Origin: a virus
Length of the DNA stretch: 64,000 nucleotides
Reading direction: 5' to 3' (one strand)
IMG/VR virus record: IMGVR_UViG_3300042887_000976
Location: 1 to 64,000 of that record
Shown here: piece after piece, positions 13,383 through 63,077 of the stretch
Layout of the letters: the number at the start of each line of letters is the position of its first letter
How positions within the stretch are numbered: the stretch's first letter is position 1
Position numbers and translations under genes: made by a program
The notes under the pieces: model-generated
Told to the model about the DNA's origin: nothing
The model's input: the letters and a program-made list of their open reading frames with translations, nothing else
The model's database searches: none

Positions 13383-13793
13383 TTATTGGTTGAAAAGCAA
13401 GAACCTCAGGATATCTAAATCACCCAATTCTTCGGTCATAAGTGGCACCGAATTAATATTCAAAGTTTCATGCTTGGTTTCTGCAACAGCATTGCAATCT
13501 GTGCATCGGCAACCTTGTCGGTAACGCACCCAAGTACCGTGTGACCTTATGGCACTTGGTTTTGGTGTCTTATTGGTAATGACTGTCCGTTCTAGGGGGG
13601 TCAGTCCACCCCACATTCCCCAAGTTTCTGTAGTGCCTGCGTCTAAGCATTCTTTCCATACAGGGCATCTACGACACACTTCTCGTGCAACTCCATAGTA
13701 TTTGTCAGGGTTGTCGGTATCTAATGGGGGGTACCAAATATCAATATGTCGGTTTTTACAAAGACTCTTAGAAATCCATTGTGGTGTGTCCAC
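13383..13793 (-). CDS. whiB: WhiB-family regulator with C-terminal HGT..Y..GCRC..C domain
   Basis: W....LC...C..CPV..EC......WGMWGGLT..ER. Confidence 0.9.
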   Translation of the reverse strand: MDTPQWISKSLCKNRHIDIWYPPLDTDNPDKYYGVAREVCRRCPVWKECLDAGTTETWGMWGGLTPLERTVITNKTPKPSAIRSHGTWVRYRQGCRCTDCNAVAETKHETLNINSVPLMTEELGDLDILRFLLFNQ

Positions 13794-20487: not shown

Positions 20488-20715
20488 CTATTGACCTGCT
20501 TGTGCAGACTTTTCAATTTGGTTAGCAAGAATACTTTGCAAAGTAGATGTGGTGCCATGTTGCTTCAAAAGGTCAGAGGCGCTTCCCCATGCTTCAGTTT
20601 CTGACATACCATGGTTGCGCTGGATATGTTGCGCAAGAATGGCTGTAAGAACATGAGGAGAATGGGTCTCCATCAATTTACGAGCCTCTTCATGGTAGTT
20701 TGTTTCATTTTCCAT
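20488..20715 (-). CDS. Small hypothetical protein
   Basis: TAATG-coupled ORF. Confidence 0.65.
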   Translation of the reverse strand: MENETNYHEEARKLMETHSPHVLTAILAQHIQRNHGMSETEAWGSASDLLKQHGTTSTLQSILANQIEKSAQAGQ

Positions 20716-21020
20716 TATGCCCACAATCCTTGCATTGAGTAGCGACTAGAACCTTCAAAGTTGTCTTCCATAAAACCATTACGGAACATAACTGGAGCAC
20801 CTGAAACCCAACGGCTATAAGTTGGCATAGTTCTTGGAGTATCAAGTACATCCATTATAGTCATTTCTTGACGGTTAAACCCACGGGTTTGTGGAAACAA
20901 CTGTTGTGGTACAAGCGGACGAATTGCTCTAATTTGTTCTGGGGGTAGCAAATAAGATTGTAAAGCCTGGTCTACCAGCATCTCTGTATGAGACTGATTG
21001 GGCTTGTACGGAACTTGCAT
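20715..21020 (-). CDS. Small hypothetical protein
   Basis: TAATG-coupled ORF. Confidence 0.65.
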   Translation of the reverse strand: MQVPYKPNQSHTEMLVDQALQSYLLPPEQIRAIRPLVPQQLFPQTRGFNRQEMTIMDVLDTPRTMPTYSRWVSGAPVMFRNGFMEDNFEGSSRYSMQGLWA

Positions 21021-21274
21021 TATTGGATGTCAGCAACAACTTGTGGTGATTGTGAAAGAGATGCAATAATGTCACGGCGGGTACCCTGCATACGGCTCAT
21101 TGCACGCATGTCATGGTTAGTTTCTGCAATGCCACCTGGGTCATGGCTATTTGGAATGTTATTTGCATTTAAAGCATTGTAAGCGCCCAAAGCAGCAGCA
21201 AGAACTTGTGGTTCTGCTGCCATCATGTGTGCAATTCTTGCGGGGTTATCCCGCTCGTCAATTCCTCTAGTCAT
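21020..21274 (-). CDS. RGxD...PxR-tag family protein
   Basis: N-terminus MTRGIDERDNPAR. Confidence 0.75.
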   Translation of the reverse strand: MTRGIDERDNPARIAHMMAAEPQVLAAALGAYNALNANNIPNSHDPGGIAETNHDMRAMSRMQGTRRDIIASLSQSPQVVADIQ

Positions 21275-21471
21275 TGGGGTTCCTTAGGTGTATTAGATGG
21301 GTGGGCGGCACGAGAACTTTGTTGTTTTTGTTCCATAATATATTCTGTAACTGCATCGTGCGGTTCAGACGGATTAGCAAAGTTAACCCAAAGAACATTA
21401 GGAGTATTAACATTCCGCACAACTACTGGGTTGCGCTTAGGATTATTTCGTTCATCACGCCCTCGTGACAT
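21271..21471 (-). CDS. RGxD...PxR-tag family protein
   Basis: N-terminus MSRGRDERNNPKR. Confidence 0.75.
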   Translation of the reverse strand: MSRGRDERNNPKRNPVVVRNVNTPNVLWVNFANPSEPHDAVTEYIMEQKQQSSRAAHPSNTPKEPQ

Positions 21472-21758
21472 TACTGCTCCTCGTTGTCTTTTTGCGCTTC
21501 TAAGTGTTTACGCAAATTTGTAAGACGCTCTTTTTCACGTGGGTGAGGAGCGCCATAATCTAAAGTTTGGTTAATTTCCGCAAAAGTACCTTCACTGATT
21601 TCACCTTTTGATGCAAAACGTCCTAAAGCAGTATCATTACCCTGTGACCAGTCACGGGCTACTTGCTGTGGTCCATCATTAAGTTCAAATTGAGGGGTCG
21701 GTTTTGGACGACCTACTTGGCGCTTTGGGTGGTCACGAGTATCTTTTCCACGAGGCAT
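21471..21758 (-). CDS. RGxD...PxR-tag family protein
   Basis: N-terminus MPRGKDTRDHPKR (start moved to the TAATG overlap). Confidence 0.75.
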   Translation of the reverse strand: MPRGKDTRDHPKRQVGRPKPTPQFELNDGPQQVARDWSQGNDTALGRFASKGEISEGTFAEINQTLDYGAPHPREKERLTNLRKHLEAQKDNEEQ

Positions 21759-21994
21759 TATTTTGCTCCACATCCAACACAAGGAACACGCTTACTAGGG
21801 TGGATAGATTCCCTGTCGTGCCACTCCAATGCTTCTCCCATGTCGTCAGTGCAATTGCTACAAAGTGGTCCGTCTTCGTCTTGACCAGCATTGGCACGAT
21901 TTTGGTAGTATTCCATATCTGCACCCGTCATCATGAATGATTGACGGTCAACACCACGATTAGGGTGTTTACTAGTATCTTCTCCACGAGGCAT
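21758..21994 (-). CDS. RGxD...PxR-tag family protein with Zn-ribbon-like payload
   Basis: N-terminus MPRGEDTSKHPNR; CSNC...CVGC. Confidence 0.75.
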   Translation of the reverse strand: MPRGEDTSKHPNRGVDRQSFMMTGADMEYYQNRANAGQDEDGPLCSNCTDDMGEALEWHDRESIHPSKRVPCVGCGAK

Positions 21995-22185
21995 TAGTAA
22001 TCCTCGTTTTCTTCACGGTTGTCAAAATACTGATTAGTAGCATGCGCTGCTACGCCACCTACAATAGCACCTATTGGACCATATCCAGCAGCACCAATAG
22101 CAGCACCACCTGCTACTCGCAACATGTTATGTAGTTTGTGATGGTCCATTCCATGTCCATCATCAAAAGACTTTCTGCGTGCCAT
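21994..22185 (-). CDS. Small glycine-zipper protein
   Basis: AGGAAIGAAGYGPIGAIVGGVAA. Confidence 0.7.
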   Translation of the reverse strand: MARRKSFDDGHGMDHHKLHNMLRVAGGAAIGAAGYGPIGAIVGGVAAHATNQYFDNREENEDY

Positions 22186-22481
22186 TATTGATTATTCCAT
22201 CCTAGTTTGCCACCCTCTACCATGCCACCTTGCGTGATGGCTCCACGAATAGCCAAATGGCGAGCATTTTGAGGTGACTCACCATAACCTCGGTAAGTGC
22301 GGTATGATGCACGAGCATTCGCAGCACCTTCGGGATTTAACATAGTTGTTGGTCCTGTGGGATGGGAGTATCCCTGTGCTCTATAGCCTGCCAAAGTGTC
22401 CTTAGACATTCCACGGAACTCACTACGTGGTGTTGAGCGGTGGTTACCACCAACTGAATTTCCTCTATGGTCAGTAGTCAT
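22185..22481 (-). CDS. TDHRGN-tag protein
   Basis: N-terminus MTTDHRGNSVGGNHRSTPR. Confidence 0.7.
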   Translation of the reverse strand: MTTDHRGNSVGGNHRSTPRSEFRGMSKDTLAGYRAQGYSHPTGPTTMLNPEGAANARASYRTYRGYGESPQNARHLAIRGAITQGGMVEGGKLGWNNQ

Positions 22482-22876
22482 TAGTAAAAAATACCTTCAG
22501 CAGGGTCTTTTGACTCTTTGTATTTTACCGTGGGTGGGTACTCGTAGGGAGAACTGTAGCCCATTGAGTTTTTACCTGAACGAGCGTCTACTGCTTCAGA
22601 AATAGCCGTAGGAATGTGGTCAATACGGTTACCAACATTGTCATCGTCTGGAACGGGTTTGTCAGGGTGGTAAGGGGTTGAGTAATCAACACCATAATGT
22701 GCATCGTCTAGGTAATCGTTTCCTTTGCGGTGCTCATCAATAACTTCCTGTGCGGTGTCTGAATCAATTTTATAGTAACGTTGAAGCGCTTGGATAACAC
22801 GGGGGGTAGGGCGGTGCCCACCATGTGATGTATCAGGGTTTCCTACTGGATTTCCTCTATGGTCAGTTGGCGGCAT
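22481..22876 (-). CDS. TDHRGN-tag protein
   Basis: N-terminus MPPTDHRGNPVG...GGHRPTPR. Confidence 0.7.
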   Translation of the reverse strand: MPPTDHRGNPVGNPDTSHGGHRPTPRVIQALQRYYKIDSDTAQEVIDEHRKGNDYLDDAHYGVDYSTPYHPDKPVPDDDNVGNRIDHIPTAISEAVDARSGKNSMGYSSPYEYPPTVKYKESKDPAEGIFY

Positions 22877-23136
22877 TAGTAGTGTCCTTTCTTCAGACGC
22901 TCTTCTCTAAGGTTATACTCTTCTTCAACATCTTCAGGGTCCCAGGGGTCAAGTACTTCATCTAAGTTAGGGCGAGGGATACCATGTGGAGGTGCGTCAT
23001 CTTCATGGCGGATGTTAGACGTATCAGGGCGAGGGATACCATGTGGAGGTGCATCATCATTATCTTGGGTATTCGTGATACGTGGGTCAACTGGGCGGCG
23101 ACCTGGATGGTCTCGTGAATCTTTACCTCTTGGCAT
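22876..23136 (-). CDS. RGxD...PxR-tag family protein with internal repeat
   Basis: N-terminus MPRGKDSRDHPGR; DDAPPHGIPRP twice. Confidence 0.75.
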   Translation of the reverse strand: MPRGKDSRDHPGRRPVDPRITNTQDNDDAPPHGIPRPDTSNIRHEDDAPPHGIPRPNLDEVLDPWDPEDVEEEYNLREERLKKGHY

Positions 23137-23150
23137 AACTCTATTTTACC

Positions 23151-23642
23151 TTATTTCCACGGCGGTGCTAATGATTTAAGAAGAGCACGCCGTTCAGCAC
23201 TAATCTCTTGAACCTGTTCTTCTCCTTGGCGAGAAGGGATGCCACGAGGACCTACTTTTCCATCATTGGTAAGACGAACAGGTTCTGCTCCAGGGGGAGC
23301 AAATTTAAGACCTTGAGATTCTAATTGAATTCCTGTCCAAAGGTTAAACTCTTCGGGCCAAACGTAGTCACCAGGGTTGATGCGCTCACCTTTATGGACA
23401 CCACGGCTGTACTGCCGAGCATTCATACGACTTAATGTTCCAAGAATCTTGTCTTGGCGGCGGTTAGAAGACATGGTGCCAAGGTATCCGTCTGGATACT
23501 GTTCTTCTACACCTGTGCGGTACCCCGATAGCAACTGGTCTTTAGAGTTGCGCCAAACTGGAGAAGGCCCCATGCTGGCAGCAGTTCCCATACCAGGAGG
23601 TTCATTAGCGCTACCCCACTGAGTAAATGTATTAGCAGCCAT
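23151..23642 (-). CDS. Hypothetical phage protein
   Basis: YPDGYLGT..S.RR.D, Y.RGVHKGERI.P.DY.WP; C-terminal P.WK. Confidence 0.75.
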   Translation of the reverse strand: MAANTFTQWGSANEPPGMGTAASMGPSPVWRNSKDQLLSGYRTGVEEQYPDGYLGTMSSNRRQDKILGTLSRMNARQYSRGVHKGERINPGDYVWPEEFNLWTGIQLESQGLKFAPPGAEPVRLTNDGKVGPRGIPSRQGEEQVQEISAERRALLKSLAPPWK

Positions 23643-23782
23643 TACTGTAACCCACCTGCGCTAGGACCACCTACAAGACCCCCTTGACCACCACCTACTG
23701 TGGAAACGGGACGAGGGGGGCGTGACATAAACTTTTGGTATTTGCCACTAGCGGGTTGACGGTTACGCTTACGAGAAGGCAT
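23642..23782 (-). CDS. Small basic/Gly-rich protein
   Basis: MPSRKRNRQP...; TAATG overlaps at both ends. Confidence 0.55.
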   Translation of the reverse strand: MPSRKRNRQPASGKYQKFMSRPPRPVSTVGGGQGGLVGGPSAGGLQ

Positions 23783-23952
23783 TAATATGAAGTCTTCGGT
23801 GGTTCGTGGGACGGGTCTTTCTCCATCTTCCGATATTGTTCGTCTTCCCAAGCGGTCTGTTGTTCTTCTGGATTCAACTTTGCGTATACTTTCCCGTACT
23901 CGCCATCCATGCCACCACGTTGCGTAATACGTTTTCCGTTATGTGTTGTCAT
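23782..23952 (-). CDS. Small protein (56 aa, not in track)
   Basis: Manual translation MTTHNGKRITQRGG...KTSY*; AAGGA RBS. Confidence 0.55.
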   Translation of the reverse strand: MTTHNGKRITQRGGMDGEYGKVYAKLNPEEQQTAWEDEQYRKMEKDPSHEPPKTSY

Positions 23953-23961
23953 AATCAGTCC

Positions 23962-24252
23962 TTACTTAATAATTGGTTTAAAAGAAATTGCAGAAATTGT
24001 TTCTCCGTCATTGCCTGGGATGTCATCAAACCCAATAACAAAAGATAAATCAATTCCACGTGGGGCAACAAAGCCACGGGCGATAGCGCAGGCTTTGGCT
24101 GCTTGGTTTACTGCTGATGCGCCAATAGCACGCATTTTAGGCATTTGCCCAGCATTAATAGCACGAGCCATGATGGAACCTACGGATTGCGGGTTACTAG
24201 AACCCGATACCTTCAGAATATCGTCAATGGTGGTGTTCAGTTCTTGTGACAT
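23962..24252 (-). CDS. spoVS: SpoVS-like (Alba-fold) protein
   Basis: ILKVS.SS.P.SV, AIGA.AVNQA.KA.AIARGFVAP.G.DL...F.DI; matches the SpoVS consensus along its whole length. Confidence 0.9.
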   Translation of the reverse strand: MSQELNTTIDDILKVSGSSNPQSVGSIMARAINAGQMPKMRAIGASAVNQAAKACAIARGFVAPRGIDLSFVIGFDDIPGNDGETISAISFKPIIK

Positions 24253-24286: not shown

Positions 24287-24652
24287 TTACTGATAACCAG
24301 CCTCATCTAAGAGCCCTGTGAGGTCTTCTAGACGCATCACAACGTATGAATCACCCAATGCTTTTTCCCCCTTACCAGGGCGTTTAACAACCAACACAGG
24401 AACTGCACCACCAAGGCGTTCAGCCTGTTCTACAGTGTCATTAAGCCATTGGCTCAGTTGGAATGCTTTTTGGTTTTTGCATTGAACCGCCACTTTTCTA
24501 AGAGGGCTCTTGCGAGCAATCCCATTGATATCCCCAGTGTCATTGCCACCAGATAATGCAGGACGGTGAGCATTGATAAACCCCTTGTTGATTAAGTAGT
24601 CCCTTACAGAAACTTCAAACGATGTGCCTTTGGCTTTAGCCTTATTTGACAC
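24287..24652 (-). CDS. Holliday junction resolvase-like PD-(D/E)xK nuclease
   Basis: K.KGT.FE..V..YL...GF..A.R..L.G..D.GDI.G, QCKN; GTG start. Confidence 0.8.
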   Translation of the reverse strand: MSNKAKAKGTSFEVSVRDYLINKGFINAHRPALSGGNDTGDINGIARKSPLRKVAVQCKNQKAFQLSQWLNDTVEQAERLGGAVPVLVVKRPGKGEKALGDSYVVMRLEDLTGLLDEAGYQ

Positions 24653-24717
24653 GGTAATTTTCCCGTTGCCAAAGAATAATGACAAGCATTGCGCCAATAA
24701 AAAAACCTGCAATAAAA

Positions 24718-52265: not shown

Positions 52266-53801
52266 TTAGAGTGTCTCGGTAACGGTGCTTCCACCGCTGA
52301 ATTGGCTTACGTTAATAACAATAAATTCAGCAGGAGTTTGCAAAGCAACACCCACTTCAACATTTACTTCTCCTGAATCAATTGTAATGCTTGTGTTGTT
52401 TGTTTCATTACAGGTAACATAAAATGCTTCAGAAGCATTATTACCTTTAAGAGCACCAGAAGAATATAAACCACTCAACATTTTAGCAATGTTTCCAGAG
52501 ATGCTAGTCCACAAGCGAGGACCATTTGGTTGGAACAATGCTGGCTTTGTAAGTTCTTCAACTTGGGCTTTAACGTAGTTAAGAGTACGGCGGCTAGGGA
52601 TGTACTTTGTATTGTCTGTTTTAATAAGGGTACGGGCACCATTAACAATAACTCCTGCACCAGGAACGTTCTTAAGCGTGTTTACATGGTTGTTATATAA
52701 AGTACCAATAGTACTCTCATTGAAGTTAACTGTAGTGCCAAAAGTATTTGCTAACGAGTAAGCGTAACCAGCAGGTGCACGACCAACCCCACGTTCTGCG
52801 TCAACACGTTGGTACAAACCAAGAATTGCGCCACCTGGGTAGGTGTCACGAAGTGCGGCTGCTCCACGAACAGCAGGGTTACTCATAGAAAGTGTTGGGT
52901 AATACACAGCAGCGTAAGAGGTACCTGAACCATAACCTTGGATACGGGTGTTAATGTCTGCGGCTGTTGTGAGTGTCTTGTCTGGGTCAATGACTAAGAA
53001 AGAATTCTTACGGGAACCTTCAACGGCTCCATCAACATAACTAATAGCGTTAGTAATAATAGATGTAGAACTTTGTCCTACAAGGTTAATTGTTAATTGA
53101 CCTTCAACATTATCCAACAAGCGCAAAGTACGTGCCCAGTCAGCATCTGTAATAACACTTCCATCTGCTCCTGCTGTAAAAGCCTGGTTAGAAGCGTTGC
53201 TAACTGTGTAGGCTGTCCCCGCTGCAAAAGCGGCTGAGGCAGCAGCATTGTACATAACATCATACGCTTGGACATAAGAAGAGTAATTGTTTAAAACTGC
53301 TGCAATATAACGAGAGTTATCAGGGTTAAGACTTAACTCTGACCAACTTTCTACTTCAGACCCACCGTAACTAATAACCAAATTAAAAGTAGGAGTAGTT
53401 CCTGTAATGTTTCCTGCGCTTACTGTTGCAGTGATTGCATTACCCCAAATTCCTGGGTTAGGAGCCCTAAGTTTAAATACTGTTTGAGCACTACTATTTG
53501 CAGTACCAGTAAAAGTACTTGAGGAAACAGCAGTTGTGCTTGCACCAGAAGTAACACGAGTTACATAAGCACTACGTCCACCATTTGAAAAGAAATGATA
53601 AAGGGCATAACCCATTTCGTAGTTTGCTGTTAAATCACCAAATTGGTTTTTGTATGAAGCCCATGATTGTACAAGTGCTGGTGTAGAAGGACCACGTTCA
53701 GCGGTTCCTACAAAAGCAGCAGCAACCGTAGCGGGGCTACTGGTTACATTAGTTGTAAATGGTCCTTCGGTAACGTAAATACCTGGGCGTGAATATGTCA
53801 T
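52266..53801 (-). CDS. Tail sheath protein
   Basis: Y.RPG.Y..E, F.G...RGP, FF.NGG, YYP, RGV..APAG, GART, F.PN...LW, PAEFI. Confidence 0.95.
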   Translation of the reverse strand: MTYSRPGIYVTEGPFTTNVTSSPATVAAAFVGTAERGPSTPALVQSWASYKNQFGDLTANYEMGYALYHFFSNGGRSAYVTRVTSGASTTAVSSSTFTGTANSSAQTVFKLRAPNPGIWGNAITATVSAGNITGTTPTFNLVISYGGSEVESWSELSLNPDNSRYIAAVLNNYSSYVQAYDVMYNAAASAAFAAGTAYTVSNASNQAFTAGADGSVITDADWARTLRLLDNVEGQLTINLVGQSSTSIITNAISYVDGAVEGSRKNSFLVIDPDKTLTTAADINTRIQGYGSGTSYAAVYYPTLSMSNPAVRGAAALRDTYPGGAILGLYQRVDAERGVGRAPAGYAYSLANTFGTTVNFNESTIGTLYNNHVNTLKNVPGAGVIVNGARTLIKTDNTKYIPSRRTLNYVKAQVEELTKPALFQPNGPRLWTSISGNIAKMLSGLYSSGALKGNNASEAFYVTCNETNNTSITIDSGEVNVEVGVALQTPAEFIVINVSQFSGGSTVTETL

Positions 53802-59543: not shown

Positions 59544-60347
59544 TTAAAACCTGCCCCGTGAGGGGCGGGCGTTGAGGAGCCTGTCTCGCATCTTCATGTA
59601 CTGGTCCATCGGCATGTTGCGGATATCCTCCGCTGTCAATGTTTGGTATTCCGTCTGAGTTTCCATTGGCCCAACAGGGGGAGCCGTTACTGGCGCACCC
59701 CGCAGGCGACCTTGCTGTTGCGCAGTCGCTTGCTGGATTGATTCAATAATAGCATTACTTCTCTCAGTAAGCACTGCAATTGAGTTTTCTATCTCTTCTT
59801 CGGTATTACCAAAGACGAGGTCTTGTAATTCAGGGATAATGCTGTCAGCAGCATCTTGAACACGGCTGTTGCGATAAGCCGTTAATTCTTGGATACGGCG
59901 CTCTTTTTCAAGGAGTGCTTCCTGTGCGGCACGCTGGGTTTCAATGGCATCAATACGTGCTTTGTAGTCTTTTTCTACATTTTCAAAACGCTGAGTCCAC
60001 TCATCTTCCTTTTTAAGAAGCAGTTCTTTAGCACTAAGTTCGTTGTGCTCACGTTGCTTAAGAATTTCTTGTTCTTGCTTTGCACGCTCTTCTGCTTCTT
60101 GGCGGGCTGCTTCACGCTCTGCGGCGATGATAGCCATTTGCTCTTCCATGCTTTTTACACGGGTGTCAGCCTCTTCAAGACGCTTGTACATCTTGTCTTT
60201 TTCCTGTTTACGGATGTTTTCTACTTCATCCTCAGAAAAGAGTTTAGAGTTACTTTTCTTCATTGCGTCTTCAACGAATTGCTCTACTTGGGGAGCATCC
60301 GCAGGGACTGAAATAATGTCCCCTTCGGGACCTGGGTTTCTTGCCAT
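59544..60347 (-). CDS. Capsid scaffolding protein
   Basis: R.QEK.K.Y, long coiled coil, I.PEL...V.G...EEI..SI, I..M.M..Y...R..LL. Confidence 0.85.
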   Translation of the reverse strand: MARNPGPEGDIISVPADAPQVEQFVEDAMKKSNSKLFSEDEVENIRKQEKDKMYKRLEEADTRVKSMEEQMAIIAAEREAARQEAEERAKQEQEILKQREHNELSAKELLLKKEDEWTQRFENVEKDYKARIDAIETQRAAQEALLEKERRIQELTAYRNSRVQDAADSIIPELQDLVFGNTEEEIENSIAVLTERSNAIIESIQQATAQQQGRLRGAPVTAPPVGPMETQTEYQTLTAEDIRNMPMDQYMKMRDRLLNARPSRGRF

Positions 60348-62471: not shown

Positions 62472-63077
62472 TTACTGCTCTTGAATCTGTGCATAGAATG
62501 GAGCACCCGTATGAGGGTCATAATGAGCCGCAACGGTAAGGGCCTTGAGGGCAAGACTTTTCGCTTGGGGAGCGGTCAACTTCTTCTTGGGAAAAAGAGC
62601 CTTAAGAGCACCCAATGCGTATGGGCCCCCCGTCCCCAAAGCGTAGAGACCATTGTTGTCGGAAGCCCACGAATAGTCGCTATCAATAACATAGATAACA
62701 CCGTTAATAGCCACGAGGATTGATGACCCTTGCTCTGCAACATGGTCTGATTGGTCATTATTAGGGGACGAATAACCCTGTGAATCAAAGCATTCTCGTA
62801 AATCAGGAATAAACTTTGAAGTAAAAAACTTGTCTAAACGTATTCCAAGAAGAGTTGCTGGTGGTGCTGGAGGGTTAAAGACATGGTGCAAAAGGTTAAT
62901 TGCACGCATATCTCCAGCCGCTCCAATGATATATTTGCCGTTTTTGGCAACCTTGCCAGAACCAGGGCGCACTGTAGATATCCGTGATACAAACCCATTT
63001 GAGTCTGTATCCGAAATGCGTGAATCGTTAGCAATTATGGCGTAACCATCACCCTGTATTCCAACAATAGTTGTCAT
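62472..63077 (-). CDS. Ntn-hydrolase protease (proteasome-beta / HslV-like)
   Basis: MTTIVG......IA.DSR, K, G.AG, A.G.GG.YALGAL, D..TG. Confidence 0.85.
   Translation of the reverse strand: MTTIVGIQGDGYAIIANDSRISDTDSNGFVSRISTVRPGSGKVAKNGKYIIGAAGDMRAINLLHHVFNPPAPPATLLGIRLDKFFTSKFIPDLRECFDSQGYSSPNNDQSDHVAEQGSSILVAINGVIYVIDSDYSWASDNNGLYALGTGGPYALGALKALFPKKKLTAPQAKSLALKALTVAAHYDPHTGAPFYAQIQEQ

Follow-up and report, generated by a model that had tools for sequence, protein, structure and literature searches.

The capsid-targeting sequence (CTS) of bacteriophage T4 is the peptide MKTYQEFIAE, and the T4 prohead protease cleaves at a motif made of a hydrophobic residue, any two residues and Glu. In the Dar proteins of phage P1 it is the N-terminal part that routes the proteins into heads. 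Encapsulins, which are cellular compartments and not virions, are filled by means of short, disordered and mostly C-terminal cargo-loading peptides that dock diverse cargo inside an HK97-fold shell, and among modified peptides the conserved leaders allow many precursors to be served by one maturase. The internal proteins of T-even phages are highly diverse defence proteins in which only the CTS is conserved, and those of T4 contact DNA through lysines (PMC3012670). In the MuF polymorphic toxins the N-terminal part specifies transport and the variable C-terminal part bears the activity (PMC12226406). Here we describe an array of small genes in an uncultured virus, IMG/VR record IMGVR_UViG_3300042887_000976, whose products share an N-terminal peptide (the tag) followed by unrelated sequences (the payloads). 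The window, that is the whole stretch of DNA analysed, comprises the first 64 kb of this record, a single contig of 77,672 bp. The comparisons below suggest that the tag is, with good probability, a modular N-terminal address tag that is read in trans.

Nearly all genes of the window are carried by the minus strand. Between positions 21020 and 23136, five open reading frames (ORFs) of this strand open with M[PTS]RGxD[TES]xx[HN]PxR (class 1), and their starts are exactly those quoted in a preliminary description made from the sequence without database searches. That description took the tag to be 13 residues long; the conserved stretch actually extends over about 17-20 residues. It also missed two genes of the array, those of 98 and 131 amino acids (aa), which have in common a second, alternative class of N-terminal peptide, M..TDHRGN..G...HR.TPR (class 2). 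For the ORF of 95 aa, the true start is the ATG at 21758, a TTG at 21782 being listed further upstream. When the whole 77,672-bp genome was translated in six frames, the class-1 motif was confined to these five N-termini, and in a comparison of N-terminal similarity over all gene pairs of the genome the tag pairs ranked as the top outliers. Written as a degenerate DNA pattern, the tag had three sites in the window and none in 100 shuffles. The gene junctions in the region 20715-23851 consist of start/stop overlaps of 1 or 4 nucleotides, as had been reported, with the sole exception of a 14-nucleotide gap at 23137-23150, and a scan for promoters and terminators over 17-27 kb gave nothing that stood out. 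The payloads of the window genes, which had been described as fully diverged, include a predicted four-helix domain, a CxxC...CxxC arrangement and DDAPPHGIPRP repeats; they proved mutually dissimilar, with a best BLASTP E value of 0.47 in a database of 8. Neither the array proteins nor ten larger tagged proteins matched any Pfam or PHROG family.

The preliminary description had proposed looking elsewhere for the tag at N-termini that are followed by variable C-termini, and such proteins were found in numbers. A profile was built from the N-terminal 32 residues of 50 diverse members; in a set of 1.84 billion representative proteins it matched 202 clusters at E ≤ 1e-3. Among the matches listed, 146 of 150 began at residue 1; three others began at an internal Met preceded by 3 to 13 residues, most likely because the start was mis-called, and the remaining one was a spurious low-complexity protein. 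The consensus is MARGEDTxxHPNRKVGR. Over the 146 representatives that match from residue 1, the initial M is followed by A (114), P (26), S (5) or T (1) at position 2, by R, K or N at position 3 and by an invariant G at position 4 (146). D predominates at position 6 (133), T (116) or E (26) at position 7, H (115) or N (28) at position 10 and P at position 11 (137). R is invariant at position 13 (146), and it is followed by K, R or Q at position 14, V at position 15 (136), R (98) or K (22) at position 17 and a weak aromatic signal at position 20. Covariation within the tag separates a DT..HP form from a DE..NP form. The tag has a median net charge of +2 and is hydrophilic along its whole length, with no hydrophobic stretch; it lacks the marks of Sec, Tat and lipoprotein signal peptides, in which a basic N-region is followed by a hydrophobic core (with a twin Arg in the case of Tat). 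Methionine aminopeptidase can remove the initiator Met when A, P, S or T occupies position 2. Since one of these four residues is found there in 146 of 146 representatives, removal is permitted, and the initiator Met of the tag is probably lost.

At the level of codons, conservation in the tag is limited to positions 1 and 2, position 3 varying almost at random, and R13 is encoded by CGN and AGR alike. The synonymous differences pointed out earlier for the window genes (ATGCCTCGTGGA vs ATGCCAAGAGGT) were borne out, and this pattern indicates that selection acts on the peptide and not on an RNA or DNA signal. In an AlphaFold model of the 95-aa protein, computed with 18 orthologues, residues 30-94 were predicted to form a four-helix domain (predicted local distance difference test, pLDDT, about 80), and residues 1-20 a free coil (pLDDT about 55) that is not packed on the helices. 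The tag profile had no significant match among the sequences of the PDB. Its only match there, over residues 1-10, was the tryptophan-binding loop MTRGTDTRFH of TRAP (MtrB; 9bds), with a nonsignificant E value of 0.28. A possible resemblance to the N-terminus of actinobacterial bL34 was dropped after the PDB sequence search returned no bL34 chain at E ≤ 10; the PDB includes mycobacterial ribosome structures.

The phage group to which the virus belongs is uncultured and comes from lake water, and 15 lake-water metagenome runs contain the stretch. Pfam and PHROG matches include DNA polymerase, helicases, primase-type genes, RecA, a DpdA-like transglycosylase, a sugar epimerase and a WhiB-like regulator. 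Of the structural genes, those for the portal, the capsid and a tail tape-measure-like protein were recognised. No close cultured phage was recovered, as a DNA search and a tblastn search with the 86-aa tagged protein gave nothing related. The nearest relatives belong to the BRock group of Streptomyces phages (Borockvirus), with identities of 59-60% for the capsid, 46-47% for the terminase and 33% for the DNA polymerase. Together with WhiB, these relatives support an actinobacterial host. Because the BRock annotation includes a tail sheath protein, a 511-aa ORF at 52266-53801 that has a BRock homologue may be the tail sheath. The DNA pattern of the commonest tag variant occurred in 50 IMG/VR stretches, all within the BRock-related lineage, and BRock itself has no tag anywhere in its genome (best profile score 7.7 bits). 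Among 185,579 prokaryote species genomes there were two pattern matches, both in homologous Nitrososphaerales loci without a tagged ORF, and these were counted as chance. As no genuine tagged ORF appeared in that set, the genomes scanned indicate that the tag is neither cellular nor prophage-borne. Tag-bearing phages range from 43 to 65% in guanine plus cytosine (GC) content. The upper end is marked by genome G006 (the record behind locus L124; 100,668 bp, 65% GC, capsid 49%), which stands about as far from the window phage as BRock does and bears class-1 tags in its terminase-portal island, so that the tag occurs in phages that differ widely in GC and presumably also in host.

Tags were also surveyed in related loci. 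For the 163-aa gene upstream of the array, IMG/VR contains 129 relatives; 80 of their loci were taken, and 81 sequences were scanned with the tag profile. There were 142 matches of at least 9 bits in 55 of the 81 sequences, and 135 of them started at a start codon, so that the restriction of the tag to N-termini holds in other genomes. Three matches were internal (L049:3424, L050:10548 and one in L031), lying behind an extension of 20-55 aa such as M[EQ]AKIYNLDEYRARKT... and having K or R in place of Met; either an upstream ORF has become fused to them or translation starts at a non-canonical codon. The other four were a longer hybrid form of the tag. Loci without class-1 tags bear other common N-termini, namely MA[HT]DHR[GM]NP..., MARG.HRPNGAGRVDR, MAGGRDSGGDGARVVDM and MAFN[VI]RSI.GRN. 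The last of these is shared by two adjoining ORFs in loci L077 (10480-11930), L079 and L080, and may be a further tag class. A word-index protein search returned full-length orthologues only and no relatives matching by the tag alone.

Pooling of the related loci and the database matches gave 263 distinct tagged proteins of 44-265 aa (median about 80). When their payloads, defined as residue 21 onward (median 62 aa), were compared by BLASTP and grouped by single linkage, they fell into 115 clusters, 74 of which were singletons. No pair out of 171 among the 19 clusters with at least three members reached a probability of 80 in hhalign. Full-length homology, which the preliminary description had named as a finding that would make the proteins simple paralogues, was consequently not found among them. 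The biggest cluster had 54 members, including two window genes, joined through common short modules, of which the motif ...AP[PA][HG]GIPRP is an example. Payloads are acidic in 71% of cases, with a median net charge of -3. The short motif [DS][DN].P[PA][HGQ]G[IT][PK]RP occurs in about 6% of the tagged proteins and hardly ever in untagged ORFs; in some proteins it directly precedes the start of a CxxC zinc ribbon.

The same payload can be found behind different N-termini. The untagged 78-aa gene next to the array has a class-1-tagged homologue (P0147), the class-2-tagged 98-aa gene has two class-1-tagged homologues (P0141 and P0154), and the stretch R[PD]TPRIA..L, which comes after some class-1 tags, follows the class-2 tag in other proteins. 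Judged by these homologies the tag is portable, one payload occurring with class 1, with class 2 or untagged. Fold searches with the model of the 95-aa protein gave nothing at E ≤ 0.001. There was a weak Foldseek match of this model to an uncharacterised 170-aa BRock protein (probability 0.54, template modeling score 0.55, 65 columns), which may be an untagged relative of the payload.

The array occupies a variable island. The 163-aa and 101-aa core genes flank such an island in every related locus of sufficient reach, and their homologues in the tag-less BRock are directly adjacent with no gene between them, so that the array marks a hot spot of insertion. Of the 50 stretches with the tag pattern, 12 lie in a second island, which is situated between terminase and portal; in the window this island contains a metallophosphoesterase and an HslV-family peptidase. 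Contigs over parts of the array, at 90-100% identity, were present in four lake metatranscriptome libraries. They tell only that the sequence is present in RNA libraries and nothing about timing or strand, and because RNA libraries can contain DNA they are weak evidence that the array is transcribed. In one of these lake RNA-library contigs only 13 other letters separate 21762 from 22009, and exactly the 78-aa tagged gene is lacking, which shows cassette-level strain variation. The coordinates of the features are collected in Table 1. Next to the array lies a large low-complexity protein of 509 aa, which might be a condensate scaffold or a DNA-binding protein; in relatives, the corresponding place after the 101-aa gene is taken by other large proteins rich in Q, G, N and P (352-634 aa). 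The 101-aa gene had no match in the ESM Atlas, and the AlphaFold model of the 163-aa gene (pLDDT 52) was unusable.

Table 1. Features of the tagged gene array and of the neighbouring and accessory genes mentioned in the text.
Feature	Position	Strand	Remarks
WhiB-like regulator	13383-13793		near the array
Low-complexity protein, 509 aa	18956-20485	-	rich in G, N, S and P; long PPxP runs; Ala/Lys/Pro-rich C-terminal tail
Untagged gene, 78 aa	20488-20724	-	homologue P0147 elsewhere bears a class-1 tag
Core gene, 101 aa	20715-21020	-	downstream island boundary; weak syntenic BRock homologue beside that of the 163-aa gene
Tagged gene, 84 aa	21020-21274	-	tag variant ...NPARIAHM at 21224-21274
Tagged gene, 66 aa	21271-21471	-	DE..NP tag variant at 21421-21471
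Tagged gene, 95 aa	21471-21758	-	tag at 21708-21758; predicted four-helix payload, flexible-coil tag
Tagged gene, 78 aa	21758-21994	-	tag at 21944-21994; CxxC...CxxC payload, zinc-ribbon-like
Untagged gene within the array, 63 aa	21994-22185	-	hydrophobic Gly/Ala-rich stretch
Class-2-tagged gene, 98 aa	22185-22481	-	MTTDHRGNSVGGNHRSTPR; class-1-tagged payload homologues elsewhere (P0141, P0154)
Class-2-tagged gene, 131 aa	22481-22876	-	N-terminal tag MPPTDHRGNPVG...HRPTPR
Tagged gene, 86 aa	22876-23136	-	class 1; tag at 23086-23136; acidic low-complexity payload with two DDAPPHGIPRP copies
Core gene, 163 aa	23151-23642	-	upstream island boundary; 129 IMG/VR relatives; homologue in tag-less BRock
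SpoVS-like protein	23962-24252		near the array; BRock also has SpoVS-like homologues
PD-(D/E)XK endonuclease	24287-24712		near the array
HslV / proteasome-beta-like peptidase	62472-63077	-	N-terminus MTTIVGI; accessory island between terminase and portal; beside metallophosphoesterase (G000 63074-64054)

The core of the preliminary description, an address tag combined with variable cargo, was upheld by the N-terminal position of the tag, its conservation at the protein level, the more than 100 payload families and the swapping of tags on homologous payloads. Strict N-terminality with a trimmed N-terminus, flexibility, portability and small cargo all argue for one partner that reads the tag in trans. 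We hypothesize that the tag would be a flexible label of about 17 residues on many interchangeable small accessory proteins of this phage lineage, and that one common partner would read it. Restriction to one lineage, the very different GC contents of the phages and presumably of their hosts, and absence from cells and from other phage groups favour a phage-encoded reader. The procapsid is the best precedent for such a reader, and virion loading was for this reason ranked first, as the single most likely use of the tag, although it is proposed tentatively and by analogy. We infer that the partner is encoded by the phage and may be the procapsid or the scaffold. The destination would then be the assembling procapsid; the head would take up the small cargo and release it together with the DNA when the next cell is infected, as for the T4 internal proteins. 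The size of the payloads would suit passage through the tail, and the tagged genes occupy several variable islands, including the interval between TerL and portal, with cassette variation between strains.

Several observations weigh against the loading of virions. The payloads are mostly acidic, whereas the internal proteins of T4 contact DNA through lysines, and BRock has head genes in common with the window phage (capsid 59% identity) yet no tagged genes. The array of the window sits between replication and DNA-modification genes, outside the head module. The head-module genes gave no Pfam or PHROG protease match, and the 267-aa gene between the portal and the capsid (59544-60347) resembles only scaffold-like DUF4355 clusters, which is taken as a lead; the tag contains no cleavage site of the T4 type, and the co-occurrence analysis yielded no partner gene. 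In that analysis, the genes present in all three fully fetched tag-bearing genomes and missing from BRock were only divergent structural genes and weak matches. The 163-aa and 101-aa flanking genes were considered as partners too, and were rejected since they occur in tag-bearing genomes but both are also present in the tag-less BRock.

A possible but doubtful alternative is a new kind of N-terminus-dependent recognition, in which some conserved machine, but not the procapsid, would recognise the free, Met-trimmed end together with G4 and R13. The reader would be sought in an actinobacterial hub or unfoldase, or in a compartment or scaffold built by the phage, for example the 509-aa low-complexity protein, and through it the phage would bring into play a reshuffled set of small disordered effectors that carry further short motifs. 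Another, rather unlikely possibility is that the tag is a docking motif that gathers small phage proteins at one intracellular hub, with no involvement of the virion. Candidates for the hub are a machine conserved in actinobacteria and a replication or modification complex of the phage. Such a role would agree with a tag that is short, flexible, disordered and adjacent to variable sequence, with the mosaic nature of payloads in which further short motifs such as ...AP[PA][HG]GIPRP are nearly confined to tagged proteins, and with the location of the array among replication and DNA-modification genes; tags that function in phages of 43-65% GC also imply a conserved partner. Against it, motifs that bind hubs do not usually have to sit at the very N-terminus, and if the accessory genes were directed to a host hub one would expect to meet them in unrelated phages that infect the same hosts, whereas the tag is limited to one lineage. 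Moreover, neither the protein profile search nor the scan of prokaryote genomes found a similar N-terminus on any cellular protein.

It is quite unlikely that the tag has no reader and that the proteins form one fast-diverging paralogous family, the N-terminus being kept as an active part or for early translation. The genes are indeed in tandem and translationally coupled, and single linkage joins 54 payloads, two of them from the window, into a mosaic super-cluster. Nonetheless, the payloads fall into 115 clusters, the 19 of them that have at least three members show no relationship in profile-profile comparison, and the same payload can be untagged or stand under another tag. Conservation also reaches residue 17-20, beyond the known effects of the first few codons, and the free third codon positions exclude an RNA-level signal.

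That the tag is a signal for processing or turnover, either an N-terminal degron or a putative cleavage site that limits the lifetime of the proteins or matures them, is improbable. The signal would be read by the HslV-like peptidase of the phage together with a host unfoldase, or by the Clp or proteasome system of the host. The N-terminal location, the processed N-terminus and the basic residues conserved at the boundary of the tag (R13, K/R14 and R/K17) are in agreement with this proposal, and the HslV-family peptidase was found in all five close tag-bearing genomes. It is, however, missing from the CheckV-complete tag-bearing genome G008 and from the 85%-complete tag-bearing G006, as it is from BRock. 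The peptidase was therefore rejected as an obligatory partner, and the link to an Ntn (HslV-like) protease that the preliminary description had suggested was not supported. There is also no evident reason for the same degron to be present on dozens of unrelated proteins.

Least probable of all is a leader for an enzyme that modifies a residue of the tag such as R13, in the manner of modified-peptide leaders, for although G4 and R13 are invariant and DT..HP covaries with DE..NP, no gene of the radical-SAM, ATP-grasp, kinase or transferase type follows the distribution of the tags. Annotated neighbours comprise a SpoVS-like gene, PD-(D/E)XK nucleases, RecA, a DpdA-like transglycosylase, HAD-type hydrolases, an epimerase and WhiB; a glycosyltransferase-like gene is absent from two tag-bearing genomes, and payloads of 40-250 aa far exceed typical modified-peptide cores.

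If the tag is an address label, the accessory toolkit of a widespread lake actinophage lineage, with more than 260 proteins in more than 100 families, can be recognized from sequence alone, and this toolkit likely includes factors for counter-defence and host takeover. The tag would also offer a portable handle of 17 residues for finding its reader. Should heads be loaded without a protease of the T4 type, capsid targeting would be a general strategy of tailed phages and not a peculiarity of T4, and virion loading, if true, would provide a packaging tag for the engineering of actinophages. If the reader turned out to be a host hub, the tag would be a new viral short linear motif in bacteria.

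Comparison with the known systems places the tag close to several of them in design. As in MuF toxins and in the Dar proteins of P1, an N-terminal routing part is combined with a variable C-terminal activity. What does the routing in those systems is either a large folded domain or a long region, and the proteins themselves are large; the tag has 17 residues and its proteins about 80 aa. Neither a MuF domain nor any other Pfam domain was detected in the tagged proteins tested. With modified-peptide leaders the tag has in common a conserved N-terminal leader, a hypervariable remainder and tandem gene arrays; it differs from them in that no maturase or other modifying enzyme accompanies the tags among the annotated genes, and in that the payloads are folded or long and disordered and not short cores. 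Encapsulin cargo-loading peptides are likewise short, disordered and terminal, with a different sequence. The resemblance to the CTS of T4 lies in a short peptide at the extreme N-terminus that is common to small, otherwise unrelated and fast-changing accessory proteins, in its portability and in the location of the genes in variable islands. The two peptides have no sequence similarity, however, and the tag, MARGEDTxxHPNRKVGR, is hydrophilic and predicted to be coil. Neither a T4-type prohead protease nor its cleavage motif was found here, and because the tag is unlike the CTS in sequence and no such protease was recognised in the Pfam and PHROG searches, it is not classed as a CTS. The setting is different too, with a BRock-like phage of an actinobacterial host, a mostly acidic cargo and a packaging role that is only proposed. 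The preliminary description had spoken of an undescribed system; this stands for the tag itself, which has no Pfam or PHROG match, but not for the architecture, for which the CTS of T4 is a precedent. What is new is this family of tags, together with its size and its occurrence in actinophages.

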